From positions 1 to 41,575 of the forward strand of contig JALWJU010000424.1 of NCBI GenBank assembly GCA_026997055.1: a DNA stretch of 41,575 nucleotides. Direction: 5' to 3'. Shown piece by piece: positions 125-17,746 of this stretch. The notes beneath the pieces are model-generated. The model did not search any database. It had not been told where the DNA came from and saw only the letters and a list, made by a program, of their open reading frames with translations. Numbering within the stretch: the stretch's first letter is position 1; every line of letters starts with the position of its first letter. Source of the stretch: Paracoccaceae bacterium (lineage in GTDB: Bacteria > Pseudomonadota > Alphaproteobacteria > Rhodobacterales > Rhodobacteraceae). The translations under genes and the position numbers were made by a program.

Positions 125-371
125 CCGGTGGTCCAAGTGTTGCAACGCTGTTTTGTCGCGATATTTCAATAGGTTGTGGCGCGCGAATTCGAGCGCATGG
201 TATCGCCGCCAACGTAGCGCCATGCTCGGCCCGAAATCCGGATGTTCTCATGCCATTTACCGGCAATGTTGCGCCTGAGTTCCACGCGCAAGTTTTGTTG
301 CGCATAGCCTTGATTGTTGCGCGTAAGGCGGTTTAACTGCGCATACATTGCTGCACAATCAGGGAAGCCCA

Positions 372-1790: not shown

Positions 1791-2125
1791 AGTGGCGCTT
1801 GAGGGATCTGCCTGTTGGCAAGGAAAGCTTTTCGGCAACCGGAAACCGCCCTACTCCTCGGCATATGCCTGATGCGGGTGCGGAGGCTGGGAACCTGCTG
1901 GACCGCAATCCATCAGGTTGGGAGGCCAGCACCTTCATCCCCAGAAAGCCTGCCTGGCACCTGGCTGAGATGGCGAGCCGTACGGCCAGCGCGACTCGCT
2001 CCTGGCGGGGCCGAGGCCGGTGATAACGGCTTATGATATTCTCCGCAGGGGCGCCCAAAACCCGAGTCGGGATATAGCTGGCCGAGCCAGTCCCAAGAAC
2101 TGCCGTACCGTTTGTTGACAAGGGG

Positions 2126-5100
2126 TTGCAGATTTTTCACGATCTAGTGGTGAATAATCATGCTCAAAAACTATCAGTCGCTGATTCGAATGAAGCAATT
2201 TGCAAAGTTTTGATGTCCGGCAAGTACGCTGGGCGGTCACTATACCTGACGTTTGATGCTCAAGAGACCAAGGAAATCGGGAAGTTGCTCGGTGTCGACG
2301 AAGTCCACGTCGAGGAACTGTGCGCGAGCCTTGTTGGAGAGGCTCTTGATAAGGGGAGAAATCCCTTCCTGACTGCGTGCCGCGAAGCCCGGCTATGGAC
2401 CTCGGAAGGAATGCTCGGCCCGCCTCCATTCGTCACGCTCTTGCATGTTATGTCTCACGCTGCCGAGCTCATGGCCAACGACGGCGAGTATGCGGCAAAC
2501 GCTTACTACCCGCGGCTAGCTAACTTAATCGGGATACCGGCAGGGAACCTTCGGTCACATGGCAAACAGACGGAGCTTTTCTGGCGGCTTCTAGAGACCT
2601 GGCTCGCCGAAAACGACTACGAGCTGGGTCGCCCGACTGCCTCGGCGAGGGGCACCTGGAAGTACGTTGGGTTGGCAATGTCGCAGGCGATCGTTCGCTC
2701 TGCGGATCGCGCAGCGATGCACGATCTATTCAACACCTATGGTTTCTCCAGCGGAGATCAACTTACGTCTGCCGACATTTTCCCCTACGTGGACGATTGG
2801 ATGCGATCGAGCGGGTCAACGCCACGCCTCCGCAAGGCATGGGAGCAGAAAGACTTGCGCGGTCGCATTTGCGAGATTGTGATCGACGAGCTTCAGGATT
2901 GGTCAACCAGCTCTCTCGGCTCCTCTAGTATCGGACATAAAGAAAGATCCCATCGGCTCTCTCTCATCGCGCAAGTGCTGCCATCCTTTCCCAAGCCACG
3001 GCTCTTGCTTCATCTCGGTCGGGGCATTGAATTGAGCCAACCGCTTACCGGCCTCGAAGACGATATTGGTAATTCGTTCAGCCTTTCGAATTCTGTCTTT
3101 GGTGCGTTTGCCACGGTTTCACCAAACCCCATGGGGCGCGCAAACAGCGGGTTGGCGAGGAGTTTCTCCGTCACCGGCGGAGACCATCGTCTGCAATGGA
3201 GTTCTGGCCCGGTAATTCCGCTCGTGAAGTCGACTGAAGGTCCATACTGGACACAGGTCGCGCGCATTAGGATTGCAACGGACGTCCTTGTCCTGGTGCG
3301 TGACAAGCAGTCCCTCGTGGAAGGGTTGGAACGCTTACTCGCAGAGACCTCGACGGGCGAGGCGACCTACCTTACCCCAGAAGATCTCGACGGAATTCCG
3401 CACGGGTGGAGGCTGTACAAGGACGTACGGATAATCCGGACAACCGATAGTGAAGTGAAAACCGATCTAAAGAACTTGGTTCCCCTGTCAGAAGAGTCGG
3501 GATTCGTCATCACAGGTGGATTGCAAGTTACGCGGGGTATTTGGCATTCGAAAGCGCCCCCAAACGTCAACTTTGTCGCGGATACCGGGCCAACTCGGCT
3601 TGAAGCTCACCGTCCGAGCGACGGGGGGCTCCGGTTGGTCCGCGAGGCCCAATCAGCTTCACGGACTTGCGGCCTGTCGATGCGAGATCTTAAGGATGCG
3701 AGCTACACGGTACGTGGGTTCAAGTCTGGCAAGCAAACCGGCGAAACCCTCGTGGTGCTGCGGTCAGCTGAACGGGCGCGGCCCCTTGATCGCCAGATGG
3801 TTGGGCAACTTGCCCATGGGGCGATATTCTCGGCGGCCGAGTTTCCTCAGGAGGGTTCCGCTTCAACGATCCGGGGCAACATTGTCTGCCCAAAACCGCC
3901 TGCAACGGAGCCAACTTCAGTTGTGGAACCACGGGAGGGGGCGCAGATTCCGTCTGGAGACGGCTCGACGGAAGACGGAGAAAGCGACTTCGTTAACGAG
4001 GATGGCTCGGTCGACGAACCTGAATCGTGTGCCGGCCGAGGCTACCATTACTGGAAATGTGAATCCCCTCCCCATCGGGTGCCGATGTCCACCCCGCTCA
4101 AGATGGAATGCAAGGACTGTCACCAGGTGGTCATCGCAAGAAAACGCGGGCGCAGGAAGCAAAATGTCGAGGCAGCCACTATTCCCATCGCGCGCAGAAT
4201 CGCCCGCGGAAAATGGGAAGGAAAATCGAGTAACGCGGACATCGACTTCGATTTGCTGTTCGATGCGCTTTGCTTCCTAGGCTCGGGATCTTGGGGAAGA
4301 ATTGACCGGCTACTCGTGGGGCACGATATCCCTCCGTGGGCAATTGGCGAGATGGCAGCTGCATGGTCATCCTTGGGCTTGATCGACGTAGCATATGCAC
4401 CGGGGACACATCGCCCAAGGAAATGGAGTGTTCCGCCTCCAACGATTTGCATAACCGGAGATGGTCGGGGCTACTTTTCAGGATTTCGATGCGACCCACT
4501 CATCGAGTTGACACTTGAAGAGGTCGCAAATCTTGGTGGCTCTTCATTGAAGACGGAGCAAGACGGGGCGCCATGCCATTGGGGCATTCGCAACGTCGAT
4601 TTTTCTGATTTGGCCGAACGCGTAAGGCCATTGGAAGATCCGCTCGGGAGGCCATTCTCGATGGTTGAGCGCCCCGAAATTGACTTGGTAAGAGCCGCGT
4701 TTTCGGTCGCTGGGCTCGAAGCGTCGCTGCTTCCCATCTCGACGGGTTCATCTCTCCGCAACCTCCAGCGTTTCGACATCGAGGGTGCGCGATGGCGCCT
4801 GGTCGATGCGGTGTCTGGCGAAGGTGCCTACCGTTTTGACCACGGCGGTAGGGTCTATGTTTACCGTAGCCCCAATGGGCGCGAATTCATGGGCCCCCAA
4901 CAGGTGATTAAGCTTTTGGCGGCTAGGCAAAGTGGTAGGCGTCTTCACCGTTACGACGAGCATTCCCGGCAATTTTCTTCCACGCGGGGAGCCGAGCCGG
5001 TTGGCCTGCTTGCCCGTGCATTGGTAGCCTGCAGCGGTCAGCTTCCGCGAAAAGGCGACGACGGCATCACCACTTATGAAAAAGTCGCGCCGGAAGTCGG

Positions 5101-5146
5101 CCGCGCAGTGCTTTATAACCTTTACTCGAGGAAGATGATCGAATGA
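2126..5146 (+). CDS. Large protein of unknown function (1006 aa), DruH-like by size and position; first gene of the helicase operon
   Basis: Long ORF in the lower-GC island. Its stop overlaps the next gene's start (ATGA at 5143-5146). It has a Cys4 ribbon (CAGRGYHYWKC...CKDC) preceded by an acidic linker, and I recognise no catalytic motif. The start is ambiguous: TTG 2126, GTG 2147 or 2150, or ATG 2213. Confidence 0.55.
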   Translation: MQIFHDLVVNNHAQKLSVADSNEAICKVLMSGKYAGRSLYLTFDAQETKEIGKLLGVDEVHVEELCASLVGEALDKGRNPFLTACREARLWTSEGMLGPPPFVTLLHVMSHAAELMANDGEYAANAYYPRLANLIGIPAGNLRSHGKQTELFWRLLETWLAENDYELGRPTASARGTWKYVGLAMSQAIVRSADRAAMHDLFNTYGFSSGDQLTSADIFPYVDDWMRSSGSTPRLRKAWEQKDLRGRICEIVIDELQDWSTSSLGSSSIGHKERSHRLSLIAQVLPSFPKPRLLLHLGRGIELSQPLTGLEDDIGNSFSLSNSVFGAFATVSPNPMGRANSGLARSFSVTGGDHRLQWSSGPVIPLVKSTEGPYWTQVARIRIATDVLVLVRDKQSLVEGLERLLAETSTGEATYLTPEDLDGIPHGWRLYKDVRIIRTTDSEVKTDLKNLVPLSEESGFVITGGLQVTRGIWHSKAPPNVNFVADTGPTRLEAHRPSDGGLRLVREAQSASRTCGLSMRDLKDASYTVRGFKSGKQTGETLVVLRSAERARPLDRQMVGQLAHGAIFSAAEFPQEGSASTIRGNIVCPKPPATEPTSVVEPREGAQIPSGDGSTEDGESDFVNEDGSVDEPESCAGRGYHYWKCESPPHRVPMSTPLKMECKDCHQVVIARKRGRRKQNVEAATIPIARRIARGKWEGKSSNADIDFDLLFDALCFLGSGSWGRIDRLLVGHDIPPWAIGEMAAAWSSLGLIDVAYAPGTHRPRKWSVPPPTICITGDGRGYFSGFRCDPLIELTLEEVANLGGSSLKTEQDGAPCHWGIRNVDFSDLAERVRPLEDPLGRPFSMVERPEIDLVRAAFSVAGLEASLLPISTGSSLRNLQRFDIEGARWRLVDAVSGEGAYRFDHGGRVYVYRSPNGREFMGPQQVIKLLAARQSGRRLHRYDEHSRQFSSTRGAEPVGLLARALVACSGQLPRKGDDGITTYEKVAPEVGRAVLYNLYSRKMIE

Positions 5147-8100
5147 GACAGGCCACCCCGACGCGTGTTCAGAACTACATTCGAGAGGCATACCTGAAGT
5201 ACTACGACTCCGCCTTTTGGATGCGCGATGATGGTATCATGGCGGAGCGCCGTAAACTACTCCAAGCGGACGGTGTAATGGCACAAGAACCCCTCCTGGA
5301 AGCCGTTCCCCAGTACCCTTCGGTTGAAGCCATCGAAGAGGCATGCAAACGCGCTGGGCTAAGCTCAGAAACCGCTTCAAGACTAGGTCCGCTGGTATTT
5401 GGCTCCGACAAATCTATCAAGCTTCGTCAGCACCAAGCGGAAGCGCTCGTCGCTGCAATGGTCGGAAATGAACTGGGCCAGAGAAATGTCGTAGTGACCT
5501 CCGGTACCGGATCGGGGAAGACGGAGAGCTTTCTTCTCCCCATCTTGGCGGGAATACTGGAAGAGCGTGTAAGAAAGGGCAAGCGCGGCCCGATAAAGCC
5601 TTGGTGGGAGAAAGATCTCGAGCGCCACGACACGTCCTGGAAACACAGCCGATCGCTCGCTAGCAACACCTCGGACGCGGCAATCCGTGCCCTTGTCCTA
5701 TACCCGACCAACGCTTTGGTTGAGGACCAGATCTCGCGCTTACGTGGCGCGGCCATGCGGGGAATCGAGGAAACCGGAGAACCTATTTTCTTCTTCGGAA
5801 GGTATACCGGGGCGACGCTTGGTACAACTTACTTTCCACCGGGAACCCTAAAGGCAAGTGACCGCGGAAAGATCAATAAAATCTCGAAAGAAATCCGGGA
5901 TATTGCCCGGGAGGCCACAGAGCTCAAACATTCCCTCGAAGCGGCCGGCAAGTCACCGACCGAGATCTTGGAGGCGGCCAGCCAGTTCCAAGACCCATAC
6001 TGCGGCGAGATGCTCACGCGGTGGGACATGATCTCGGCGCCGCCGGACATTCTCATCACGAACACGAGCATGCTGAACATCATGCTGCTTCGTGATGTCG
6101 AAGTCCCTATTTTCGAAAAGACGCGAAAATGGCTCGAGGCCGACGAGGCAAACCACTTCAGCTTGGTCGTCGACGAACTACACAGCTATCGCGGCACGCA
6201 GGGAACAGAGGTTGCCTTGGTGGTCCGGAACCTACTGGACCGGCTAGGACTGGGACCCGACTCGGCCCAGCTTCGTTGCATAGGAACAAGTGCATCCTTG
6301 GACCCGGAGAGCGGAAAAGAGTACTTGGAACAGTTCTTCGGCGTTGACCGAAAGACCTTTGTAATCCTGCCGGGCCAACCCGAGGATTTCAGCGCAAACC
6401 TTCCCGTGGAAACGGATGTTCTGGAACGCAATCTTGCCCTCCTAAATTCCGAAGACCCGGAGAAGGTAAAGGCCGCTTCGGAAGATATATGTAAGCATTT
6501 TTCACCACGGATTGCACTTGCCGCCGCATGTAATGAAGCTGGATCGCTCGTCTCGTCAGCAGGAGGTGCCGGAGACTCCGCAGTAATAGTCCGGCCAGCG
6601 AAGCTATCTAAAATTGGAAAATCCCTTTTCGGGGCGAGAAGCTCGCACGAGCTTCTTGATGCAATCATGATCGCGGCAGCGCATGAAGACCGAGGAACCT
6701 GGGAAAAACCCAAGCCGACTTTCAGGTCGCACATGTTCATGCGCCAAGTGCAAGGTATTTGGGCATGTTCGAACCCTGAATGCACCGAGGTAGAGAAGGA
6801 ATTCAGGTCGAGGGGGCGGAAGATTGGCCGCCTCTTCAAGTCACCCGCGTTGAAGTGCGAGTGTGGCGGTCAAGTCCTGGAGTTACTGTACTGCTACGAT
6901 TGTGGAGAAGCCTTCCTCGCGGGCTTCGTAGTCCCATCCAGTAGCGAAGCGCTGAAGGATCAGATCTTCCTGGAGGCAACGAAATCAGTGGAGGGCGGCG
7001 GATATCCCGGCATGGTCTACGAGCGACCACACTCCGAGTTTAGGTGGTACTGGCCGGGCGGCCAAATCCCTGCCGGGTCATCGCGTTGGACACACGGGTT
7101 TCCCGGGGAGGGTGGATCAGGAACCTTCCAGTTCCAGACTGCTCGGTTCGATCACCACCTAGGGCTGCTGGTACCCGGTGACCCCGAGCCCACGGGTGTC
7201 GTGTTAACCATCCCACCGGACCTTCCCGAGGGGCGCACCGTTGCTGGGCTCCCCGAGACCTGCCCCCATTGCCTGAGCTCCTACAGCTCACGAAACCAGC
7301 GAGACCTGAAGGCTTTCTACCGCGGCACGGTCCAAACTCCCATCCGCGGGTTGCGCACCGGCTTGAATGTGACAACCCAGCTGATTGCCGACCGCGCGAT
7401 GTTGTCGGCCGGTGACGGAGCAACTGCCGAGAAGATGATCGCATTCACGGATAGCCGTGACGATGCCGCCGACTTGGCCGCCGGACTAGAACTGCATCAT
7501 TTTCGAGACCTGGTGAGGCAGCTTGTCTTCAAGCAGTTCTCAGGCGCGGCCATCCTTACCTGCGCGGAACTCCAGAAGATCATCCAAGCAGTGAAAAATG
7601 GCGATCCAGATGCCGTCGCAAAACGAGACGCCGCGAACGAGAAGACCCCAGGAATCTATGAAGCCGCGGTAAAGATCGCGTTCGGAGTGGACGAGGAAGC
7701 AGATAGGGAGCTGGCCGCAAGGCACGATGCAGCCGTTGAGAGCGGATCCATCGCGTGGTCGGCCCTGATGATCGCGCTTCGGGAATCCCTGGTCGCTCTT
7801 GGTCAGAATCCAGCAGGGACGGACGCGAGTCGTGCCACTGACCGCCCCGACGGCGGTGGGACGCCCTGGTGGAAGTTCTTCGATCCCCCGGAAGGTGCAA
7901 CGTGGGCACCACTCGATGCAGCTGCCGCGAGTGATGGCCGCCGTGAATTCATGGCGCACCTATCTAGGACGGTAGCTTCTTCTCTCTTCGACCAAGCGGG
8001 CCGAGATCTTGAGTCGATGGGGACTGCAACCATCGAGCTTGACTCGGAATGCGGCGCAAAGCTCGGAATGGACGATGCATTGGCCAAGGGGATAGTCGGC

Positions 8101-10650
8101 AACATCATCCGGATCCTAGGGCAGGCACGGTTGCTCGAAGGCGAAAGGACGCGCGCTTCGACGAATCCTCCGAAACAAGTCACGGAGTATCTCGAAAAGC
8201 TCGCGCCCTTGGTAAACCGACAACCGGGCGAACTCGCGGAAACTATCAAGGAGCTTCTTCTCCAAAAGAACGCGTTGACCGATCAATGGCTCCTTGCAAT
8301 CGGTCGGTATGCTTCGTTCCCACTAAAGCTGGTTCCGAGAGGCGAACGGACCCTGAAAAGGTGCGTAAAATGTGCAAAGTCCACCATGGTAACCCCCTTG
8401 AACGTTTGCACGACACCCCACTGCGACTCGCGCGATTTCGTCGACGTTCCCAACCCAGATGAGGACTACTATGCCTGGGTTTCACGAGAACCCGTCCACC
8501 GAATGTCCGTCGCTGAGCTGACCGGCCAGACGAAACCCATGTCCGAACAGAGAAAAAGGCAGCGCCTGTTCAAGGGCCAAGCGTTCGTTGGCGAGGAACA
8601 CGAGGTCACGCATGGCCTCGATGCCCTGTCAGTCACGACAACAATGGAAGTCGGCGTCGACATCGGCTCCCTGAAACTTGTCATGATGGCGAACATGCCA
8701 CCCCAAAGGTTTAACTACCAACAACGGGTTGGTCGAGCTGGTCGAGCCGGACAGGCATTCTCTTACGCAATAACCATCTCTCGCGGTGCCGCTCACGACG
8801 ACTACTACTTCAACAAGCCAGAGCGCATGACCGGGGATGTCCCGCCTCAGCCCGAGCTAGACCTCTCCCGGCCAGAGATCATTCGACGCGTTTCGACAGC
8901 GGAAGCGTTGCGTCGTGCATTTGGCAGCCTTTCAAACCCGCCAGCGCGAAGCCCGGAGAGCGCGCATGGCGCTTTTGGCTCCGTCGACGAATGGTTTCCG
9001 ACTTACCGCGCGAGTATTTCGAACTGGCTGTCGACGTCGCCGGAAGTTAACGAAATCGTGGAAAGGCTTTGTGCTTATACGCCGCTTGAGCGCACGGCCC
9101 AGGCCGATGCGATCGTGTCTTATCTTCGGAACGAACTCATCACGAAGATCGGTGAGTGTGTTCAAAGCAGTCAGTTCATCCAAGCCGAACTTAGTCACCG
9201 GCTGGCAGTTGCAGGCCTACTCCCGATGTTTGGGTTCCCAACGCAGGTGAGAAGCCTATTTTGGGACAAGATGGCGAACCGGGCAGAAGACACCGTGATC
9301 AGCGACCGCCCCCTCGATCATGCAATTTGGGCCTTTGCACCAGGTTCGGAGATACCAAAAGACAAGCGGTTATACACGGCTTGCGGCTTCGTCCTACGCC
9401 GAGACGGCTTCCAAGGCGTCGTGAATGAAGCCGCTCCGCTCGGTGCCTCCTTACCCTACTGGAGGTGCACGGAAAAGGCGTGCGGGACAATAGCTCAAGG
9501 CAATGCCGAGACCTGCCACGTCTGCGGGAATCCTGCGCAGACATTCCCCCTATACCAGCCGAAAGGCTTCATGGCACACTGGAAGGCCAGGGACTACGAT
9601 GGCCAACGTCAGCGCGGCCCCGCGCTTCCTCCACCAGTTCGCGCATTCGATCAGGCCTACGATCCATCAAGCAGTTGTGGCCCAATGCTCCTAGCACTCG
9701 GACAAGGACAGGTCGCCCTGATCAACGATAACGGCGGCGATCTATACGAGTTCACCCAAGAACCGCATGACAAGGTCACGGTCCGTGACAGCTCGCTTTA
9801 TCGGGATGGCAACATGTTCACGGGCGTAGGGGGGGAAGTAATTGATCGCGGGGCCATCGGAGCGGTCTTCACGACCGACGTGTTGAGCTTCTACTTTGAC
9901 GGCGCACCCGGCGTGGGCAACGCGGGCGTTCTTGACGTTGTCGAACAAAGGTCCGCGCGCGCCGCCATCGCCTCCTTCGCCGAGTTCGTGAAGCTCGCGA
10001 TTTCCACCGAGCTGGATATTGACCCAGAGGAGTTTCGTTCCGGCCGCCAGCGCTTGAAGCTTGATGGGCGCGCCTGTGAAACGGAGCAGGTTTTCATCGC
10101 GGATAAGCTGGAGAACGGCGCGGGGTATTCCCGATGGGCCGCGAAACCCGAGAACATGCGGCGCTCACTCGAGCGGTTCTTGGATGGAGACGATGGCGTC
10201 GGGCGATCTTGGCAGGACGACGCCCATGCGCGAGACTGCGATTGTTCGTGCCCAGACTGCCTGAGAAGCTACGCCAATCGTTTCATACACGGCCTGTTGG
10301 ATTGGCGCCTCGCGCTCGACCTCGCAGACCTAGCGCTGGGACGTGGACTCGACACGGGAAGGTGGCTTGGAGGTCCAGAGGATCGAGCGGCACAATCGTT
10401 CAAGGCTTTTTGCGATAGCACGGGTCTTCCCGTCGAAATTGATTACGCGGAAGGTCTCACGGCAATCGTTTCTGGTGCCAATGCTCTAATTCTCGGCCAT
10501 CCACTTTGGCACACCCGGGAGGGCCTGTGGCAACCCCAGCAAGTTGATGCCCGAAATGAACTACGCGCGAGGGGCATCGAGGCCAAGTGCGTCGATGTGC
10601 GCGACTTCGCTGCCCGCCCTGCCGTCTACTACATGGAGCTTCGCACGTGA
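5143..10650 (+). CDS. druE: DEAD/DEAH-box superfamily-2 helicase with C-terminal DUF1998 (MrfA-type Zn) domain, 1835 aa; DruE-like (Druantia)
   Basis: Walker A VVTSGTGSGKTESFLLP, motif II VVDELHSYRG, motif VI QQRVGRAGRAGQ, and the C-terminal cluster CDCSCPDCLRSYANRF typical of DUF1998. Several additional CxxC pairs are present. The size and the fused helicase+DUF1998 architecture match DruE rather than the split DISARM DrmA/DrmB. Confidence 0.75.
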   Translation: MRQATPTRVQNYIREAYLKYYDSAFWMRDDGIMAERRKLLQADGVMAQEPLLEAVPQYPSVEAIEEACKRAGLSSETASRLGPLVFGSDKSIKLRQHQAEALVAAMVGNELGQRNVVVTSGTGSGKTESFLLPILAGILEERVRKGKRGPIKPWWEKDLERHDTSWKHSRSLASNTSDAAIRALVLYPTNALVEDQISRLRGAAMRGIEETGEPIFFFGRYTGATLGTTYFPPGTLKASDRGKINKISKEIRDIAREATELKHSLEAAGKSPTEILEAASQFQDPYCGEMLTRWDMISAPPDILITNTSMLNIMLLRDVEVPIFEKTRKWLEADEANHFSLVVDELHSYRGTQGTEVALVVRNLLDRLGLGPDSAQLRCIGTSASLDPESGKEYLEQFFGVDRKTFVILPGQPEDFSANLPVETDVLERNLALLNSEDPEKVKAASEDICKHFSPRIALAAACNEAGSLVSSAGGAGDSAVIVRPAKLSKIGKSLFGARSSHELLDAIMIAAAHEDRGTWEKPKPTFRSHMFMRQVQGIWACSNPECTEVEKEFRSRGRKIGRLFKSPALKCECGGQVLELLYCYDCGEAFLAGFVVPSSSEALKDQIFLEATKSVEGGGYPGMVYERPHSEFRWYWPGGQIPAGSSRWTHGFPGEGGSGTFQFQTARFDHHLGLLVPGDPEPTGVVLTIPPDLPEGRTVAGLPETCPHCLSSYSSRNQRDLKAFYRGTVQTPIRGLRTGLNVTTQLIADRAMLSAGDGATAEKMIAFTDSRDDAADLAAGLELHHFRDLVRQLVFKQFSGAAILTCAELQKIIQAVKNGDPDAVAKRDAANEKTPGIYEAAVKIAFGVDEEADRELAARHDAAVESGSIAWSALMIALRESLVALGQNPAGTDASRATDRPDGGGTPWWKFFDPPEGATWAPLDAAAASDGRREFMAHLSRTVASSLFDQAGRDLESMGTATIELDSECGAKLGMDDALAKGIVGNIIRILGQARLLEGERTRASTNPPKQVTEYLEKLAPLVNRQPGELAETIKELLLQKNALTDQWLLAIGRYASFPLKLVPRGERTLKRCVKCAKSTMVTPLNVCTTPHCDSRDFVDVPNPDEDYYAWVSREPVHRMSVAELTGQTKPMSEQRKRQRLFKGQAFVGEEHEVTHGLDALSVTTTMEVGVDIGSLKLVMMANMPPQRFNYQQRVGRAGRAGQAFSYAITISRGAAHDDYYFNKPERMTGDVPPQPELDLSRPEIIRRVSTAEALRRAFGSLSNPPARSPESAHGAFGSVDEWFPTYRASISNWLSTSPEVNEIVERLCAYTPLERTAQADAIVSYLRNELITKIGECVQSSQFIQAELSHRLAVAGLLPMFGFPTQVRSLFWDKMANRAEDTVISDRPLDHAIWAFAPGSEIPKDKRLYTACGFVLRRDGFQGVVNEAAPLGASLPYWRCTEKACGTIAQGNAETCHVCGNPAQTFPLYQPKGFMAHWKARDYDGQRQRGPALPPPVRAFDQAYDPSSSCGPMLLALGQGQVALINDNGGDLYEFTQEPHDKVTVRDSSLYRDGNMFTGVGGEVIDRGAIGAVFTTDVLSFYFDGAPGVGNAGVLDVVEQRSARAAIASFAEFVKLAISTELDIDPEEFRSGRQRLKLDGRACETEQVFIADKLENGAGYSRWAAKPENMRRSLERFLDGDDGVGRSWQDDAHARDCDCSCPDCLRSYANRFIHGLLDWRLALDLADLALGRGLDTGRWLGGPEDRAAQSFKAFCDSTGLPVEIDYAEGLTAIVSGANALILGHPLWHTREGLWQPQQVDARNELRARGIEAKCVDVRDFAARPAVYYMELRT

Positions 10651-12620
10651 TCGAGATCATCGGACAACACGGCACCCCCGAATACGACGCGGCCCTAAAG
10701 ATCCGTGCGGCTCTGAATTCCTATTGGCCGGGAATAGACAAGTCGCCAGCCGATCTAGACCACGTTAAGATCGCGGTGAATACCAAGTTGGCTGGGTACA
10801 AGGTAAGCGACATCGACATCGTAATTGCGGCCAAGTTTGCCCGAGGACGGTATTTTGTACCGAAATCAACCCTAAAAGACAAGGACGGGCGCAGGATCGT
10901 CGGGGCTAAGATTCGGGTCTTCTCTCTCGTGGCCGCCATAGAGGTCAAGGGACATGACGCGCGTGGATTGAACATTAGCAACGGTGGCATCAATGTAACT
11001 TACAAGGGCGGATCGAAGAGCGCGACAGATCAAAATGATGCTCAGGCACAGGCGCTAAAGAGTTACTTCAGTGATCTCACGCGTCAGAACCCGTGGGTGT
11101 ATCGTTCGGTACTCCTCACTGGCATCAACGAACTTCCAAGGGATCGAGGACGCCGGGTTCCGGATGCCGGTGCCGTGGCGGCGAACTTTGATTTCGCAAC
11201 CTTGCTTTGCGCGATGGTAGGGATCCATGGTGTCGGCAAGATCGGAAACGAGTACACGATTTCGTCCGCCAAGCCGAACACCATGGAAACCATACTGTCC
11301 GCCTCCATCTTTCGCCGGGTGGTACCATCGAACCTCGACCGAAAAAAGATGGATCGGATTGCTGCTAGACCACCGGAAGCGCTGGAACTTGCCGGCCGGA
11401 TCGGTGCGGAACGGGTTCACCTCCGCGGTGAAGGTGGAACTGGCAAAACCGTTCTGCTGGCACAGGCGGCGCACGAAGGCTTCAGGTCGCATGGAAAACG
11501 CTCGCTGTTTCTGACCTACAACCACGCCTTAACCGCCGACATTCAAAGGCTTCTAGCCCTACTCGGAGTTCCTAGCAGTGGCGAGTCCGGGGGCGTGGAT
11601 GTCCGAACCGTGATGTCTTTCATTTACTCCTGGTTACGAAGGCTTGGCGCAATTGGCGCTGATGAGGACTTGGACTTCGACCGGTACAGCGAACACTGCA
11701 CGAAGGCTCTGGAATTCTTAGAGGCCGGGCTCTTGACCGACGAAGACATTGCGCGGGCAAAATCCAGCAACTTCGAAGAATTCGATTACGATGCCATCCT
11801 CGTTGATGAAGCGCAGGATTGGCCGCAACCAGAAGCGGACCTACTTGTCAGGCTATACGGGGGCAACCGAATTTCCCTGGCAGACGGGATTTCCCAGCTC
11901 GTGAGGGGCACGGCCACGGACTGGCGGTCATCCGTTCGTGATCGTGAGGGTACAAAGAATCTCGCGCTCCATGAATGCTTGCGCATGAAGAACAATCTCG
12001 GGCAATTTTCGAATCTCGTTGCCGAACAAGCCGGCCTAAATTGGCAAATTACCCCGAACTCGCAGGCCGCGGGCGGAAGAGTCATCATTCGAGACGGATT
12101 CTTCCACGAGATGCCGGACTTGCATCGGGATCTCTTGACCAAGGCGGCGGATGATGGATGCGAGCCAATTGACTGCCTTTACTGCGTTCCTGCCTCGGGA
12201 GTTCAAACGCGCGGGAATGGCCGAGCTAGCATCCTTGGCATTGCAATGGAAGATCGGGGGCTTTCTGTTTGGGATGGTGTTGACCCTATCGCGCGTCGTG
12301 ACTACCCCAGATCCACCAAGGACAACCGGATCGTTCAATACGATTCCTGTCGAGGCCTCGAAGGTTGGGTGGTCGTTCTCGACTCCTTGGACGACTTTTG
12401 GGAAGCCAAGTACCGTGTTGCTCTTGCGGAACCACCTGTTTCGAGTATCCCAATGAGTCCAGAGGAGCGAGCGCGGCGGGTAGCATGGACGTGGTGCATG
12501 ATGGCATTCACTCGGCCCATCGACACACTCGTAATTACTCTCAAGAATCGCGGAAGCGAGGTCTCACAGGCATTGAGTCGCATCGCAGAAGCCAACCCGG
12601 ACCTCGTCGATGTACCATGA
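10647..12620 (+). CDS. NERD/PD-(D/E)xK nuclease domain fused to an SF1 (UvrD/AAA_19-like) helicase ATPase, about 657 aa
   Basis: GTG 10647 overlaps the druE-like stop (GTGA), so I prefer it to the GTG at 10587 given in the ORF track. The N-terminal SDIDIVIAAKF...VAAIEVKGHD (D..E-x-K) followed by Q-rich DQNDAQAQALKSYF resembles NERD. Walker A is GEGGTGKTVLLAQ, Walker B is AILVDEAQDW, and the C-terminal DSCRGLEGWVVVL resembles the UvrD_C KGLE motif. Confidence 0.75.
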   Translation: MIEIIGQHGTPEYDAALKIRAALNSYWPGIDKSPADLDHVKIAVNTKLAGYKVSDIDIVIAAKFARGRYFVPKSTLKDKDGRRIVGAKIRVFSLVAAIEVKGHDARGLNISNGGINVTYKGGSKSATDQNDAQAQALKSYFSDLTRQNPWVYRSVLLTGINELPRDRGRRVPDAGAVAANFDFATLLCAMVGIHGVGKIGNEYTISSAKPNTMETILSASIFRRVVPSNLDRKKMDRIAARPPEALELAGRIGAERVHLRGEGGTGKTVLLAQAAHEGFRSHGKRSLFLTYNHALTADIQRLLALLGVPSSGESGGVDVRTVMSFIYSWLRRLGAIGADEDLDFDRYSEHCTKALEFLEAGLLTDEDIARAKSSNFEEFDYDAILVDEAQDWPQPEADLLVRLYGGNRISLADGISQLVRGTATDWRSSVRDREGTKNLALHECLRMKNNLGQFSNLVAEQAGLNWQITPNSQAAGGRVIIRDGFFHEMPDLHRDLLTKAADDGCEPIDCLYCVPASGVQTRGNGRASILGIAMEDRGLSVWDGVDPIARRDYPRSTKDNRIVQYDSCRGLEGWVVVLDSLDDFWEAKYRVALAEPPVSSIPMSPEERARRVAWTWCMMAFTRPIDTLVITLKNRGSEVSQALSRIAEANPDLVDVP

Positions 12621-12648
12621 TCCACTTGCTGGATGAAAGTTCAGATGG

Positions 12649-12885
12649 GTGAACGATTTCGTAACATTTTCTCTAGAAAATCGTTTCATGCGTGTTTGGA
12701 AACTCGAAGCCTGCTGGGATGAAGAGCGGATCGCGTGCCGCTGGGGATATGCACTCGCCGTTTCGGCCGAGGAAGCACTTGCCCTGTGCAAGGCCACGAG
12801 CGGACTTCCCCTGAATTTCGTACACGAGAAACATCCTGCCATGCTTTGGCCGGGGGAACCCGGGAAACGGGTCAGTTGGAGCTAA
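12649..12885 (+). CDS. Possible small Trp-rich protein (65-78 aa), hypothetical
   Basis: Open frame from GTG 12649, or ATG 12691 (MRVWKLEACWDEERIACRWGY...). It lies directly downstream of the helicase operon and its last 14 nt overlap the convergent glycosylase gene. No recognisable motif. Confidence 0.25.
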   Translation: MNDFVTFSLENRFMRVWKLEACWDEERIACRWGYALAVSAEEALALCKATSGLPLNFVHEKHPAMLWPGEPGKRVSWS

Positions 12886-13585
12886 GCGCTCCCTTCGACC
12901 TACAACGGGAGAAAACAAGGCAAGCCGAGCATCCCGGCCTCCGTGCCGTGCAGACCAGACTTCCGAAATCTAACACTGACCAGTTTATCTCGATAGGCTG
13001 TTGTCCCTTCACGAGCCAATGAGCAGCCTCCTGTAGCCAAGGGTCGTGGCGAATATCGGCGAGTCGACGGGGGCGGATGTATCTCTCGAGCAGCCTTGCC
13101 ATGTTGACATCGAGCAAGGGCCGCGGCTGGCCATGCTGGAACAAGAGAATTGCGTTTTGGACATACTGGCCCACGGCCGGCACCGAGGAAAGCTCGGCGG
13201 GGTCATCCGGGAAAACCCCGCCCCTGCCGCTAGCGTAGGAAGCAAGCCCTTTAAGCGAAAGCGCCCTGCGTTTCCAAAGTCCGATCGGCCGGAGCAGTTC
13301 CTCAAGGTCCTCGGTTCGTGTTTCCGCGATATCCGCCCAACTTCGAAATCGCGAGAAGAACCCCTCGTAAATACCGGCCACGGTTTCCGCGCGTGTTCGC
13401 TGGAGGAGAACCTCCACACAGATCCTCTCGAAAGTACCGGTCCCCGGTGTGCGCCATGGCAAGCTGCGGCCGTGTTGCGCGTACCACTGCAAGAGATGAC
13501 GCCGCAGGCGGGTAATCCGTTGTTTTTCCCCGCGCGTCAGGGGATCAGGCGAAGACATGGACTTCCGGTGGCGGAAAGAGGGCAT
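12872..13585 (-). CDS. HhH-GPD superfamily DNA glycosylase (EndoIII/MutY/Mig-like) with a [4Fe-4S] cluster; likely monofunctional mismatch glycosylase
   Basis: LPWRTPGTGTFERICVEVLLQRTRAETV matches the MutY/Nth N-terminal signature. The HhH is VPAVGQYVQNAILLF, with Tyr where EndoIII has the lyase Lys. The catalytic-Asp region is LLDVNMARLLERY. The cluster CTARRPGCSACLVFSRC fits C-x6-C-x2-C-x5-C. The gene overlaps the upstream endonuclease gene. Confidence 0.75.
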   Translation of the reverse strand: MPSFRHRKSMSSPDPLTRGEKQRITRLRRHLLQWYAQHGRSLPWRTPGTGTFERICVEVLLQRTRAETVAGIYEGFFSRFRSWADIAETRTEDLEELLRPIGLWKRRALSLKGLASYASGRGGVFPDDPAELSSVPAVGQYVQNAILLFQHGQPRPLLDVNMARLLERYIRPRRLADIRHDPWLQEAAHWLVKGQQPIEINWSVLDFGSLVCTARRPGCSACLVFSRCRSKGALSSN

Positions 13586-14747
13586 CGAAATCCGAGGGAT
13601 GGATCTTGAACAGGTACCCGTGATCGCGCACGCGCCGCGGCCCCTTCTGTGACATCAAGTAGTCCACGGAAACAACCCCACCCTCGAGAAGGGCGTCGAG
13701 GTTCCTTGCCCTTGGCTCCTTCGTGTGGACCACCCGGACATAGTGAAATTCCTCGCTAGAGCCTCTCCCCCGCGTTTTAGCCTCGACCCAGAAGGTCTGG
13801 GGATGTTTGTCTTGTAGACGGGTGCGGAGCTTGTCCATTTCCCAAGTCGTAACATGGGTCTTGGTCAAGGTATCCGTGTCGACATGGTTCTGTTTCAACC
13901 AGTCTTTCACGGAATCTACCTCTAGAATAAATCCAGTGGAGTTTGGTTTTAACGCGTTTATCTCGCAGTTTAGCCGCAGCTTTCCATCGCGAAAGTAGCC
14001 GTATGTCGATAGCAGGTTCCACGCGTTTTCTATTGGGCTTATCTTCCAATTTGGAGCCTGGGAAAAAAGGGTCACGCGGTTCGGATTTTTCGTCTTCAGG
14101 CGTTTTGCCTTGATCTCGATGCCCTTGAAGTCTGGCTCCTTGCTCGAGTTTGCGGCAATGCCTAGCAGGGTTTCAAGCGTCATCCCCACGCCAGTGTCGC
14201 CCGGTCGCAAGGTTGGAACAAACCCTCGCCCGGAAATCTCCCGGATCCGTTCAAGGAGCTCGACGACAGCGGGTTCCGGCGCGATCTTGCCCACCCGTGC
14301 CGCGATCTCGAAAAGAGGCGTGCCCGGCTTGTTGATCGAGTTCAAGATTTCAGCGCGGCTACAGTTTACCACGTAAAGCGTGTCGTCCTGAACGATCAGG
14401 GCGAGAAGATTGTACGGCTCCGCGTACTTCCCAAGCCGACTGAACCAAATGCGCGGGTCTCCCTTCTTCGTCATCGGTCGGTAAAGCGAAACCGTTGTCT
14501 TCTCGAGGCCCCTAGGTCCAACGAAGAAAACCCTCCTCGTCACCTTTGCATCGGGACCCTGCTCCTGGGAGTCGTAGTCATGAAATCCCGCATCGACGAG
14601 GTATCGGCGGACGTTGCCGGTCGCATCGATAATCGATTTTTTCATGCCGGTGGGCGTGGGAACGAGCAGGCCGACATCCAAGTCGTACTTGTTGAAGGTC
14701 TTCAGGACCTCGCTGATACTCGTGTCGCTCTTCTCAAGCATCGTCAC
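13545..14747 (-). CDS. Type II restriction endonuclease, MutH/Sau3AI/MvaI-BcnI-like catalytic domain with an extra N-terminal domain
   Basis: GDTGVGMTLETLLGIAANSSKEPDFKGIEIKAKR closely parallels the MutH segment [33 protein letters not shown], which carries the E-x-K active site. The gene overlaps the upstream C5-methyltransferase gene by 14 nt. Confidence 0.6.
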   Translation of the reverse strand: MTMLEKSDTSISEVLKTFNKYDLDVGLLVPTPTGMKKSIIDATGNVRRYLVDAGFHDYDSQEQGPDAKVTRRVFFVGPRGLEKTTVSLYRPMTKKGDPRIWFSRLGKYAEPYNLLALIVQDDTLYVVNCSRAEILNSINKPGTPLFEIAARVGKIAPEPAVVELLERIREISGRGFVPTLRPGDTGVGMTLETLLGIAANSSKEPDFKGIEIKAKRLKTKNPNRVTLFSQAPNWKISPIENAWNLLSTYGYFRDGKLRLNCEINALKPNSTGFILEVDSVKDWLKQNHVDTDTLTKTHVTTWEMDKLRTRLQDKHPQTFWVEAKTRGRGSSEEFHYVRVVHTKEPRARNLDALLEGGVVSVDYLMSQKGPRRVRDHGYLFKIHPSDFDALFPPPEVHVFA

Positions 14748-16158
14748 CTAGGGCCGCATCGAGGATTCTCTTGAAATGTTTCCCGACCTTCTCCGCGAGG
14801 CCAACCGGAACAGCATTGCCAATTTGCGTGTATTTCGGGACCTCGCGATCGAATATGCCTTCCAGAGGGTTCCCGGCCCGGCGCAGGCCACCCGTCGTGC
14901 GTTTCCCGGCAAAACGATACCAGTCGGGAAAAAGTTGCAAGCGCGCCCATTCCCGCACGGTCAGGATTCGCGGCTGGAGGTAGTGCACGTAGTCGTCTGG
15001 CAACGAGGTCGCGGTAATGTTGGGTTCGCCGTTGCCCCACCTAGGCTTCAGGACACGTTGCGAGAACTTCCGCGTCTTGTACTCGTCCGGGATTTCGCCA
15101 TTGTTCTGCAGCATGTGGTCAAACTTCGCGACAACGGTTGCCTTGTGCTTGCTGTATTCCTGCTCAGTCAGCACTACCCGGCGCTTCGAATACCATGGCG
15201 GTGCACTGCGGAGGCGTTTTTGAATAGGCGTGCGCGCTGGCCGAGGGTAGGCAGTGGTTTCGAACTTTCCACGTGGAAAACTGCCCGATCGCAGGACATC
15301 GGCGACAGAGGGGTCAACGAGATCGCCAAGAAGGTCCACGAGGTCCGGGTAAGTCCCCGGGTTGCCTCTGGGCAAAAAGCCGCATTTCACCGCATCCTCG
15401 GGATCAGCTCCCGGGTCGAGGAAGGGACATGCCTCCAGAATGTCCTTGCGGATACCGACGAGAAGAACGCGCGGGCGGTTCTGTGGAACGCCGTAATCCT
15501 TCGCGTACACTAGGGACCACCTGACCTCGTATCCGGGAATCCTCCGGAACTCGGCTTTCACGTCGGGAAAAATCAATTCACAGCCGCTTTTCGTCCACTT
15601 GGCATTCAGCAATCCCCGCACGTTTTCAAACAGGAAGATACGCGGGCGCAGCCGGCGAATGACCTGCGCCATGCGCCCATACAGGTGGTTCGACGGAATC
15701 TCCTTGCGGTCAACAGCGTAGGAACGACGGATCCCGATTCCAGAGTAGCCCTGGCAAGGCGGCCCACCCGCCAGAACGTCCAGTGTGCTACCCCCACCGG
15801 TGGCCGGGTTAGCCCTGTCTAAAGGAACAAAGTTTATTTCGGGAATACTGGCCAAGTCCGAAACCAAGGCATCAAGACGCTTCCCCTTGAGGCTCTGTGC
15901 GTCTCGGCAATGAAGCGCCTCGTTCTCTGAGAATTTCATGCCTCCCAGCTCGTGATGCCTATTTTGTAGGTACGTAGCCAGGGCATCCTTGTCTAGCTCG
16001 TTCACGAATACAGGGGTAAAGGATGCGTTTTCGAAGCCGAGAGAAAGGCCGCCACAGCCTGCAAACAAGTCAACCATCGTGTAAAATCGCGACCCATGGG
16101 ATCGCCGCGTCTCCGGTCCAACTCTTTCAATCGTTCCAGCTATATCACCCTGTAACAT
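14734..16158 (-). CDS. DNA (cytosine-5)-methyltransferase
   Basis: All canonical C5-MTase motifs are present: I DLFAGCGGLSLGF, IV GGPPCQGYS, VI FLFENVRGL, VIII QNRPRVLLVG, X GNAVPV. Confidence 0.95.
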   Translation of the reverse strand: MLQGDIAGTIERVGPETRRSHGSRFYTMVDLFAGCGGLSLGFENASFTPVFVNELDKDALATYLQNRHHELGGMKFSENEALHCRDAQSLKGKRLDALVSDLASIPEINFVPLDRANPATGGGSTLDVLAGGPPCQGYSGIGIRRSYAVDRKEIPSNHLYGRMAQVIRRLRPRIFLFENVRGLLNAKWTKSGCELIFPDVKAEFRRIPGYEVRWSLVYAKDYGVPQNRPRVLLVGIRKDILEACPFLDPGADPEDAVKCGFLPRGNPGTYPDLVDLLGDLVDPSVADVLRSGSFPRGKFETTAYPRPARTPIQKRLRSAPPWYSKRRVVLTEQEYSKHKATVVAKFDHMLQNNGEIPDEYKTRKFSQRVLKPRWGNGEPNITATSLPDDYVHYLQPRILTVREWARLQLFPDWYRFAGKRTTGGLRRAGNPLEGIFDREVPKYTQIGNAVPVGLAEKVGKHFKRILDAALGDDA

Positions 16159-16255
16159 CGTGCCGCTCCCGTGATTCTTTACACCCGTTGACTAACACAT
16201 GTAGTATGCAAGGTCCAGGTGGAAACCACATCTGGGAATACTCTACCGGGATCAC

Positions 16256-16828
16256 CTAGTTGCCGCGACTTTTCCAATCCAGCACCGCACGGTTCTCCCC
16301 CGGCCCGGTCACGCCCAGCGCCAACTCGGCCTCAGTCCCCACATCTGCCACCCCGGGGCTACCTGCACGCAGCCCCCGCAATGCCTCGATGTTCCGAACC
16401 ACCTGCGGCGTCCTTGCCAGCGTTTCGGCAAGCGACGCCTGAAACGCCTGCGCCTTCACCTGGTGGCGGGCGCCGAAATAGAAGCTGACGATGGCGCCGA
16501 GCAGCCACCACAGCGGCTCGGGGACAAGGGCAAGGCCCTGCATGCGCGACGAAAACCAGACCGGGTTGACCATCGCGGAGCCGATCAGGAACAGCACGCC
16601 CAGCGCCATGGCGGGCCGCGGCAGGCGGTTGAGGCCATCGATCATGCGGTCGAACAGGCCGCGCTGCTGGCTGAACTCGGCGCCGAACTGATCAAGCGCC
16701 GCGGCCCGGTACTCGGCCGTGCGCCGGGCCTCCGCCTCGGCGTTCGGACGGAAGGTCTCGACCGTCTGACGCACATCCTTCAGCCCGCCGCCGAACAGCC
16801 AGCCGAACAATCCCTCGATCAACCCCAT
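16256..16828 (-). CDS. Holin, 3-TM gene-transfer-release type (RcGTA holin family)
   Basis: I prefer the internal start ATG 16828 (MGLIEGLFGWLFGGGLKDV...), which lies 4 nt after the endolysin stop. Hydrophobic segments are AMALGVLFLIGSAMVNPVWF and LWWLLGAIVSFYFGA. The ORF-track N-terminal extension to 16906 overlaps the endolysin gene. Confidence 0.7.
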   Translation of the reverse strand: MGLIEGLFGWLFGGGLKDVRQTVETFRPNAEAEARRTAEYRAAALDQFGAEFSQQRGLFDRMIDGLNRLPRPAMALGVLFLIGSAMVNPVWFSSRMQGLALVPEPLWWLLGAIVSFYFGARHQVKAQAFQASLAETLARTPQVVRNIEALRGLRAGSPGVADVGTEAELALGVTGPGENRAVLDWKSRGN

Positions 16829-17433
16829 GCCTTCACCCTTTCCGCAAACTCGGCCTCGGTCATCCGGTACCGGGGCCGCATGAATTCCTCCGCCCGCCGG
16901 ATCCACCCTCCCTTGGTGCCGGCCCGGGTACGGGCGAACTTGCGCAAGCGCGGCTTGCGGTCGGCCAGGCGGAAGTAGTAGTTGCGCCGGGCAATGGCAT
17001 AAGCATCGACCAGGTACTGCCCAGCCTTATCATGGGCACGCTTAGCTGCCTCGGCGGTGACCGGCCCGATCAGCCCGTCCACCGTCACCGGCTCATCGAA
17101 CTCGGCGAGCAGGCGCTGCAGGATGCGCACGGCGTTGCTGCCGGCATTGACCTGCATGTCGAAGACGGAAGCGTGCAGCGGCTCGGGCAGCAGGTCGATG
17201 CGAGGCCCGTGGAAATACCGCTCCCTGAAGATCCGCACGGCATCCGCTCGGGTGAGCGCCTTCATGTCTTCGACCGTCACCCGCCCGTCACCGGTCTTGT
17301 CCAGCCCCAGTGCGCGCATGGTGCCGATGGTCACACCGTATTTCGTGGCGCCGCCCGGGTCTGCAGGATCGTTCACGAAGCCACCCTCGCGCGCAACGAT
17401 CTCGCGGGCAATCTCGTCCACGTTCATGTTCAT
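16819..17433 (-). CDS. Endolysin, glycoside hydrolase family 108 plus peptidoglycan-binding domain
   Basis: MNMNVDEIAREIVAREGGFVNDPADPGGATKYGVT is the GH108 signature (EGG..ND..DPGG.T.YG). GGAG lies 5 nt upstream of ATG 17433. The long Arg/Pro-rich extension to 17961 in the ORF track is non-coding shadow. Confidence 0.85.
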   Translation of the reverse strand: MNMNVDEIAREIVAREGGFVNDPADPGGATKYGVTIGTMRALGLDKTGDGRVTVEDMKALTRADAVRIFRERYFHGPRIDLLPEPLHASVFDMQVNAGSNAVRILQRLLAEFDEPVTVDGLIGPVTAEAAKRAHDKAGQYLVDAYAIARRNYYFRLADRKPRLRKFARTRAGTKGGWIRRAEEFMRPRYRMTEAEFAERVKAWG

Positions 17434-17720
17434 TCTCCAATTCCGAAGATCTTCAGCTTCACCGCCACGCCTGCGATCAGCGCGAGCAGCAGGCCGGTGG
17501 TGACGAGCCGCACGGCGGTCTGCCAGGCGGTGCGCCGCGCCATGCGCAGGCTCGCGAGCAGCGTGCGCAGGTCGCGGATGTCGACGGCGGCTTCGGGCCC
17601 CTCGAGGCCGACATCGGCGAGCGCCTTGCGCGCCCCCTTCTCGGCGGCACGTGCCAGGATGGCTTCGAAATCCTCCTCGGGCATGCGGACGAATCCCGCG
17701 TCTTTCGACGGTGGGGTCAT
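17430..17720 (-). CDS. Small phage protein with a C-terminal transmembrane helix (hypothetical; possibly lysis-associated)
   Basis: Starts at ATG 17720 (MTPPSKDAGFVRMPEEDFEAIL...) and ends with the hydrophobic segment VTTGLLLALIAGVAVKLKIFGI. Its stop overlaps the endolysin start (ATGA). Confidence 0.45.
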   Translation of the reverse strand: MTPPSKDAGFVRMPEEDFEAILARAAEKGARKALADVGLEGPEAAVDIRDLRTLLASLRMARRTAWQTAVRLVTTGLLLALIAGVAVKLKIFGIGE

Positions 17721-17746
17721 GGTCGTTTCCTTCTGGTGATTGGAGA

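Follow-up and report, generated by a model that had tools for sequence, protein, structure and literature searches.

The window analysed here is a 41,575-nucleotide stretch of DNA from a Paracoccaceae bacterium (assembly GCA_026997055.1, contig JALWJU010000424.1, positions 1 to 41,575 of the forward strand), and it carries an operon of three genes whose last member, here called NH, encodes a 657-residue protein with a NERD-like nuclease domain followed by a superfamily 1 (SF1) helicase. We consider it likely that NH is the third translationally coupled subunit, a nuclease/translocase effector, of an unclassified variant related to type II of the Druantia defence systems, in which a nearby methyltransferase marks self. 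The parts of this reading are not equally firm: NH is very probably a subunit of its operon, and the chances that it is the nuclease effector appear evenly balanced. The window operon itself is a variant related to type II that lacks DruG and carries NH. Its genes and signals are as follows.

2126..5146, plus strand: DruF, long form, 1006 amino acids (aa), matching PADLOC DruF2 (PDLC00023) over its full length with E = 4.6e-106
5143..10650, plus strand: DruE, a YprA-family superfamily 2 (SF2) helicase with an MrfA Zn-binding (DUF1998) module, 1835 aa, matching PADLOC DruE2 with E = 0 (1441 bits)
10635..10650, plus strand: translational-coupling junction, with GGAG at 10635-10638, GTG at 10647-10649 and the TGA of DruE at 10648-10650
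10647..12620, plus strand: NH, third gene of the operon, a 657-aa NERD-like nuclease and SF1 helicase with a GTG start and a TGA stop

The 657-codon open reading frame (ORF) of NH is intact when translated, and its GTG start and the TGA stop of the DruE gene before it share the letters GTGA (10647-10650), with GGAG 8 nt upstream; the DruF stop and the DruE start overlap likewise, in an ATGA at 5143-5146. A longer version of the NH frame is mechanically possible from a GTG at 10587, but because 24 of 24 aligned homologues begin with MIE(V/I)xG at the position matching 10647, we place the start there. A preliminary description of this DNA, made from the sequence alone, had noted the overlap of start and stop codons, the lack of intergenic space for a promoter, and a composition like that of the two upstream genes, and all three observations hold: the NH start codon overlaps the DruE stop, the same -4 bp gap recurs in 16 related loci, and the G+C contents of NH, DruF and DruE are 0.558, 0.568 and 0.582. 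Since these values lie below those of the genes of gene transfer agent (GTA) type to the right of approximately 16.2 kb (0.67-0.68), NH is inside a low-GC island. A promoter scan yielded two promoter-like sites against a chance expectation of 5.9, none of them preceding NH and with a consensus that may not suit an alphaproteobacterium, and the scan contained no terminator-like site between 12620 and 12872.

The two upstream products are recognizable Druantia proteins. DruE also matches the Pfam families DEAD, Helicase_C and MZB and, in the PDB, 9wae_A (E-132), 9tu7_Y (E-44) and YprA 6znp. The PADLOC model DruL4 matches the C-terminus of DruF (aa 869-1000, E = 0.0023), and the free-standing DruL of locus L082 matches positions 744-1005 of the long DruF model; by sequence, the last 130-260 residues of long DruF correspond to the separate DruL of type IV systems. 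DruF2 and DruE2 are both present and adjacent in the window, with overlapping genes and nothing between them.

NH is a member of a sharply defined, length-uniform family whose matches are far beyond chance. A word-index search returned 350 homologues, nearly all of them 650-660 aa and matching over the full length, and an exhaustive HMMER search of 1.84 billion representatives placed 397 clusters (50% identity) at E <= 1e-30 and 898 at E <= 1e-3. Existing labels of the gene say only 'DNA/RNA helicase' or 'AAA family ATPase', there are no matches between NH and the NCBIfam models, and sequence and profile searches of full-length NH and DruF against the PDB recovered no solved relative.

We retrieved 80 genome loci with an NH alignment, extending from 82% down to 30% identity, and clustered all of the neighbouring ORFs; nine loci were too short to judge, so that 71 are informative. 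They derive from Alpha-, Beta- and Gammaproteobacteria, Acidobacteriota, Chloroflexota, Planctomycetota, Chlorobiota, Cyanobacteriota, Bacteroidota and others, and in 63 of the 71 NH adjoins a system with a YprA-family helicase. Four architectures can be distinguished: DruF-long-DruE-NH (architecture A, the clade of the window; 20 loci), X933-DruD1-DruE1-NH (architecture B, type I-like; 31 loci), NH-DruF(short)-DruL-DruE4 (architecture C, type IV-like; 10 loci), and DISARM class 1 (architecture D; two loci, L025 and L068). Sixteen loci have a gap of -4 bp between the DruE stop and the NH start, three have one of -1 bp, and in 48 of 49 it is no more than 83 bp; while the other neighbours in these islands (Fic, WYL, Vsr, PtuA and others) vary by locus, NH is constant.

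The two proteins also diverge together. Pairwise distances of NH and of DruE are correlated with a Mantel r of 0.946, a value that none of 2000 permutations reached, and the correlations for architectures A and B taken separately are 0.976 and 0.974; that NH and DruE move together is itself the point of the correlation. The converse comparison, anchored on long DruF instead of NH, gives the same picture, with NH directly after DruE in seven of the seven loci that extend far enough downstream. These are the metagenome loci L083, L085, L087, L088, L091 and L095 and the plasmid locus L081; the metagenome scan was seeded by a narrow DruF alignment (A3) that reaches the long-DruF clade only, the broad alignment (A2) being too divergent.

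These observations bear directly on the suggestion in the preliminary description that NH may act on its own in the manner of Nhi, with NH alone sensing and degrading phage replication intermediates and its company reflecting only the clustering of defence genes. Several points can be put in favour of such autonomy: nuclease and SF1 helicase are combined as they are in Nhi and Hna, which are single-protein systems (PMC10732053); PADLOC gives weak matches of NH to C3a187 'NERD+UvrD' (E = 1.8e-5), GajB (5.8e-5), AbiO (0.0012) and Nhi (0.003), all of them partial and in the helicase N-lobe; the presence of NH beside four different partner systems is what would be expected of a mobile autonomous module; and eight of the 71 informative loci, L071 for example, have no YprA-type helicase within 5-10 kb. 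The solo relatives, each with at least 5 kb on either side, are distant (30-36% identity), several of them are cyanobacterial, and an autonomous activity of the NH fold is conceivable given their existence. Nevertheless, the same-strand adjacency fixed in 63 of the 71 loci, the overlapping codons and short gaps, the constancy of NH amid changing island neighbours, the r of 0.95-0.98 between NH and DruE distances, and the seven of seven DruF-anchored loci all speak against a stand-alone gene, and the Nhi match is partial and marginal. We therefore regard stand-alone action of NH as quite unlikely, and the neighbour profile that the preliminary description had proposed places NH at a fixed position beside YprA-helicase systems.

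The loci outside the clade of the window have features of their own. In architecture B (L018-L059; e.g. L018 at 439-3333 and L029 at 12007-15714) a protein of approximately 950 aa takes the place of DruB/DruC before DruD-DruE-NH; no PADLOC or Pfam model matches this X933 protein, and DruA (PDLC00001, E = 0) is found upstream or convergent downstream. Eleven architecture B loci have a long DruA (675 aa) and an MzaB-like gene convergent downstream of NH. Locus L025 (2619-17384) contains an SNF2 helicase, an MmeI/Eco57I-type methylase, a 192-aa ORF, NH, DrmA and DrmB, of which DrmA and DrmB match the two chains of the solved DrmAB complex (7S9V_A, E = 0, and 7S9V_B, E = 6e-176). The order in L068 is DrmA, DrmB, a 351-aa ORF and NH, and we assigned this locus to DISARM since its large flanking gene clusters with the DrmA of L025. 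At L053 (3548-9656), and also at L054, L064, L073 and L076, NH-DruF-DruL-DruE is immediately preceded by a conserved trio of genes whose proteins have approximately 437, 272 and 1245 aa. Weak matches link the first of them to DpdA (E = 2e-5) and the third to SspC (E = 7.5e-4), and the trio may be a DNA-modification module. In L071 (1158-8824; Synechococcus sp. BA-132) a solo NH lies between a TIR-nSTAND1-FGE-sulfatase-domain protein and a DACNG-DACNH-DisA-type diadenylate cyclase, a context that is defence-island-like without a YprA helicase.

In the PADLOC scheme, type II Druantia comprises DruM, DruF, DruG and DruE, and type IV comprises DruE, DruF and DruL (PMC8565338). The window operon resembles type II in its DruE2- and DruF2-type proteins, in the adjacent C5 cytosine methyltransferase, and in being mostly from Proteobacteria, but it is without DruG, its DruF is long with a DruL-like module, and a NERD-SF1 protein follows DruE. 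It differs from type IV in that the window contains no separate DruL gene, DruL-like sequence being present only as the C-terminus of long DruF. No gene lies between DruF and DruE in the window, and NH has no DruG2 match although PADLOC includes that model; none of the Dru models of PADLOC v2 recognises NH.

The four-gene cassette of methyltransferase, DruF, DruE and NH had made DruG a candidate identity for NH, which we rejected. At L103, on Agrobacterium pusense plasmid pR76, the canonical order DruM2-DruF2-DruG2-DruE2-Vsr is found (DruM2 E = 5e-176, DruF2 E = 1e-251, DruE2 2340 bits); its DruG (698 aa, PDLC00025, E = 1.7e-124) is unrelated to NH (BLASTP E = 5.9), and NH is absent from the locus. 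Four further loci, L104-L107, have a DruE 43-45% identical to that of L103 together with a DruF-like gene; the two that are annotated (L105 and L107) have an extra gene between DruF and DruE, and weak DruG-like matches occur in L106 and L107. NH is thus not DruG. NH-bearing operons are variants left untyped by the current PADLOC scheme, and NH-bearing loci probably meet no complete PADLOC Druantia type definition. The text of the PADLOC supplement neither describes DruG nor lists the type II genera. The text of the YprA/ARMADA preprint, figures aside, does not describe the NH gene, and it refers to an 'unappreciated diversity' of Druantia I/II ('type IV CoCoNuT'). TALON, which is rare and a different system, gives the sole literature link that we found between NERD and the YprA helicase clade.

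The N-terminal part of NH has the following features.

10647..11321, plus strand: NERD-like PD-(D/E)xK domain, aa 1-225, assigned from invariant residues, NERD matches and the AlphaFold2 model
10680-10682, plus strand: putative catalytic residue E12
10809-10817, plus strand: putative catalytic residues D55/D57 (DID), within SDIDIVIAAKF, aa 54-64
10941-10949, plus strand: putative catalytic E99-V-K101, within AAIEVKGH, aa 96-103
11043-11045, plus strand: putative catalytic residue Q133

Seven residues (E12, A16, D57, E99, K101, Y119 and Q133) are invariant in 72 relatives reaching down to ∼22% identity, and conservation of such an E-D-ExK(+Q) set is typical of an active site and not of a degenerate domain. 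Pfam NERD matches 39 of the 72 relatives at E <= 1 (best 3.1e-5), the only other recurrent family being ALOG (seven relatives). The AlphaFold2 model of the domain, with a pLDDT score (predicted local distance difference test) of 92.4, has an alpha-beta-beta-beta-alpha-beta order (helix 11-26, strands 39-47, 55-63 and 93-101, helix 126-145, strand 152-157) and places D57 and the ExK on strands 2 and 3. The NERD domain of ZwsA is an endonuclease by experiment, in which E535, D567, E580 and K582 were validated by mutation (bioRxiv 10.64898/2026.04.06.716636), and the E12/D57/E99/K101 pattern of NH agrees with it. We interpret the N-terminal domain of NH as a divergent NERD-like nuclease domain whose active site is apparently intact.

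The remainder of the protein contains the helicase.

11394..12617, plus strand: SF1 helicase core, aa about 250-657, assigned from invariant motifs and Foldseek matches
11427-11450, plus strand: Walker A motif GEGGTGKT, aa 261-268
Plus strand: SF1 motif Ia, LTYNHALTADIQ, family form LTYNxALAADI
11805-11816, plus strand: Walker B motif DEAQ, within VDEAQDW
11883-11909, plus strand: SF1 motif III, DGISQLVRG, family form DGxxQLxRG
11979-11990, plus strand: SF1 motif IV, LRMK
12336-12368, plus strand: SF1 motif V, QYDSCRGLEGW, family form SxRGLEGW
12510-12524, plus strand: SF1 motif VI, TRPID

Motifs I (GGTGKT), Ia, II (DEAQD), III, IV, V and VI are invariant or nearly so in an alignment of 25 sequences (A1). 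The AlphaFold2 model of full-length NH has a pLDDT of 87 and a predicted template modelling score of 0.85, and Foldseek matches it to known helicases at E values of 1e-13 to 1e-10, among them the SLFN11 helicase domain (1.4e-13), UvrD (1e-12), PcrA, Rep, Upf1, Sen1, Dna2 and AdnAB. On the predicted structure NH contains a complete SF1 helicase core with the two-RecA-lobe fold, UvrD/Rep- and Upf1-like. The Pfam helicase families nonetheless score below gathering (SLFN-g3_helicase 19.4 versus 24 bits, UvrD-helicase 14.3 versus 23, AAA_30 14.1 versus 27, AAA_19 14.3 versus 25.1), and UvrD_C gives no Pfam match; because no Pfam domain reaches its gathering score, the domain calls on NH rest on motifs, family-wide profile matches and the predicted fold. 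The preliminary description had read from the sequence the nuclease motifs IDIVIAAKF and AIEVKGH, then a P-loop GEGGTGKT and a DEAQ in VDEAQDW. All of these are present, and its view that a nuclease-like domain precedes an SF1 helicase on one chain, in an Nhi-like design, is borne out by motifs, fold and invariant residues. Of the helicase families that it had named for comparison, AAA_19 and AAA_30 remain below threshold and UvrD_C does not match; the SF1 core stands by its motifs and fold.

Because Dna2 and AdnAB are among the fold matches, and repair enzymes include SF1 helicase-nuclease fusions such as AddAB, RecB and Dna2, NH might be a helicase-nuclease with a housekeeping role in repair or recombination whose place in this island is accidental. 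We find this extremely improbable: the family is rare and patchy at 397 clusters in 1.84 billion representatives, it is found on low-GC islands and plasmids and is tied to defence operons in at least eight phyla, and no NCBIfam model covers it.

Among named single-polypeptide systems, NH shares with Nhi of Staphylococcus, AbiO and Hna the presence of a nuclease and an SF1-type helicase on one chain and a likely role in DNA-targeting immunity. The Nhi profile (PDLC02372), however, aligns with NH only in the Walker-B region, aa 368-457 against profile positions 251-340 of 470 (E = 0.003, 14.3 bits), and that of AbiO likewise with aa 368-457 only (E = 0.0012). Membership of NH in the Nhi family, a comparison that the preliminary description had called for, was accordingly rejected, the match being marginal and partial with no stretch that passes alone; moreover, Nhi acts as a single gene, but NH belongs to an operon in 63 of 71 loci.

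The top PADLOC match, C3a187, has the same two-domain order but covers only the helicase N-lobe of NH (aa 253-413), and the C3a187 protein of locus L102 matches NH by BLASTP over 124 residues with E = 7e-4; judged by these alignments, NH and C3a187 are separate families. The L102 gene (15128-16849; Deinococcus aquaticus plasmid pDATS03) encodes a true C3a187 member (E = 4.5e-73) and lies 640 bp downstream of DruF-DruL-DruE, apparently a second and independent pairing of a NERD-SF1 protein with DruE.

Two further systems share elements of this organization. The BrxHII/PglX-pair system likewise has a giant YprA-family helicase followed by an SF1 helicase with an N-terminal nuclease-type domain, and the weak GajB match of NH (E = 5.8e-5) is a further likeness; unlike in that system, the N-terminus of NH is NERD/PD-(D/E)xK-like and not RelE-like, the partners are DruF or DruD-type, and no significant sequence relationship was seen. 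CnuH is a Upf1-like SF1 helicase of type II/III CoCoNuTs, with a Vsr-like nuclease fusion in type III-B (PMC11090510), and Druantia I/II has been reinterpreted as 'type IV CoCoNuT' with inactivated CnuB homologues. As in CoCoNuTs, genes for McrB/McrC-like coiled-coil proteins accompany that of an SF1 helicase, which may or may not have a nuclease, but CnuH has OB/stalk, SmpB-like and RelE-like domains and a predicted RNA target, none of which applies to NH, and the two are likened by description only.

Several observations weigh against our reading of NH as an effector subunit working with DruE. In addition to the eight solo loci, NH is missing from canonical Druantia: it is absent from the type II locus L103, from the type I locus L101 (P. 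putida pKF715A, DruA-B-C-D-E), and from within 9 kb in L104-L107, and because canonical type I and II loci are without it, NH is not a universal requirement of DruE. Co-divergence of NH and DruE is partly expected for genes sharing one island, and a DruE-NH complex is something that we infer from the genes alone. The methyltransferase may simply be part of the adjacent MvaI/BcnI restriction-modification (R-M) system. At the N-terminal domain, NH itself scores 14.5-14.7 bits against Pfam NERD (PF08378; E about 0.05), under the gathering score of 22.1; a Foldseek search of the domain against the PDB gives nothing at E <= 0.001 (best 0.05), with NucC, MspJI and PaqCI in the list only at E values of 0.2-0.8; a profile search of the domain against PDB sequences gives no match; and an hhalign comparison with the N-terminal part of a true NERD protein aligns the EVK...QN segment at E = 0.21. 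The NERD assignment of the preliminary description thus has its profile support in the 39 matching relatives and not in the score of NH itself, and for a nuclease fold in residues 1-170, as looked for in that description, the strand order of the model speaks in favour and the lack of a significant PDB neighbour against.

It could be asked whether NH is a true subunit whose role is that of sensor, loader or regulator, such as a second motor of other polarity detecting DNA ends or stripping phage proteins, with a NERD-like domain that binds DNA or a partner and does not cut. The structure search of the N-terminal domain, with no nuclease neighbour, is consistent with this, and for Gabija and Hachiman the sensor is described as being the SF1/SF2 helicase partner (10.1101/2023.05.02.539174; PMC12278908). 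The 351-aa gene between DrmB and NH in L068 occupies the position of DrmC, and there NH may add to a nuclease, not replace it. Invariance of the full E-D-ExK(+Q) set in 72 sequences down to ∼22% identity argues against a domain that only binds, and we consider such a non-cutting NH unlikely.

If NH is the nuclease effector, a mechanism can be outlined by reference to better-known members of the helicase family. The type III DruE is a 3'-5' helicase triggered by single-stranded DNA and has an active PLD nuclease (bioRxiv 10.64898/2026.05.13.724758; PMC13192584), the DruE of types I and II has a C-terminal Vsr-like nuclease predicted to be inactive (bioRxiv 10.1101/2025.09.15.676423), and DruF-type partners are described in the literature as inactivated McrB/CnuB-like coiled-coil proteins. 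By analogy with type III, where the activity of DruE has been demonstrated biochemically, DruE would load on exposed single-stranded or 3'-tailed phage DNA and unwind it 3'-to-5'. Because the Vsr-like nuclease of the type I/II protein is predicted to be inactive, the complex would need a nuclease from elsewhere. NH, tethered to the complex, might supply it through its NERD-type PD-(D/E)xK domain, while its UvrD/Upf1-like SF1 motor might feed DNA to the nuclease or strip proteins off the DNA. DruF with its fused DruL-like end may act as scaffold or sensor, and the neighbouring C5 methyltransferase would mark host DNA. We infer the order of events, complex formation, nuclease activity and substrate, and methylation dependence in this scheme.

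The genes flanking the operon in the window are listed below.

348-1790, plus strand: HTH_20 and Fic protein, matching PDC-S04/SoFic in PADLOC (E = 1.5e-13 and 3.6e-8)
12872..13585, minus strand: HhH-GPD (MutY/Nth-like) glycosylase; NCBIfam mutY E-35 (below cut-off), Pfam HhH-GPD E-13, PDLC03398 E-24
13545..14747, minus strand: MvaI/BcnI-family restriction endonuclease; Pfam MvaI_BcnI E = 3.7e-60, found in a subset of related loci only
14734..16158, minus strand: C5 cytosine methyltransferase; Pfam DNA_methylase E-53, PADLOC MTase_II 9e-68, DruM2 1.3e-51
16256-16906, minus strand: GTA-type holin with three transmembrane segments
16819-17961, minus strand: holin-associated N-acetylmuramidase
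18484-22917, minus strand: GTA TIM-barrel/tail protein

The C5 methyltransferase is 2.1 kb downstream of NH on the opposite strand, and its MTase_II score beats that to DruM2. It adjoins the operon, in either orientation, in nearly all related loci with enough flank, and it is 64-78% identical between loci whose DruE proteins are 49-68% and whose NH proteins are 41-59% identical. Its companions are the MvaI/BcnI endonuclease and glycosylase or, at L004, L005 and L017, Vsr instead. The three-gene set at 12872-16158 looks like an R-M system with its own T:G mismatch repair enzyme, and the methyltransferase is likely a DruM-equivalent self-marking enzyme that doubles as M subunit for the R-M system next to it. 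The HTH-Fic gene, whose adjacency to the operon is not conserved in other loci, is probably a separate defence or toxin gene. Near 16200 the GC content steps from ∼57% to ∼68%, where the defence island abuts an RcGTA-like cluster (16256-22917). On its left side the island runs past the edge of the window, and a tRNA search of the window found none, so that no attachment site is identifiable.

The most fitting view of NH is that of a conserved subunit, accessory or effector and so far unclassified, which several YprA-helicase defence systems have in common. A broader proposal, which we put forward tentatively as a real possibility, is that NH is a portable cartridge of nuclease and motor that was recruited independently by at least four YprA-helicase lineages (Druantia I-, II- and IV-like, and DISARM class 1), supplying the effector missing from a DruE with a dead Vsr domain. 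Were this so, DruF-DruE-NH and X933-DruD-DruE-NH would be unclassified Druantia types in which NH functionally replaces DruG or DruB/C. An NH profile would allow NH-bearing loci to be typed as a distinct Druantia subtype. Types I and II of Druantia are without a known mechanism and the nuclease of their DruE is predicted to be dead; NH, a conserved nuclease-helicase found in DISARM and, in three Druantia architectures, co-evolving with DruE, is a concrete candidate for the missing phage-destroying effector.

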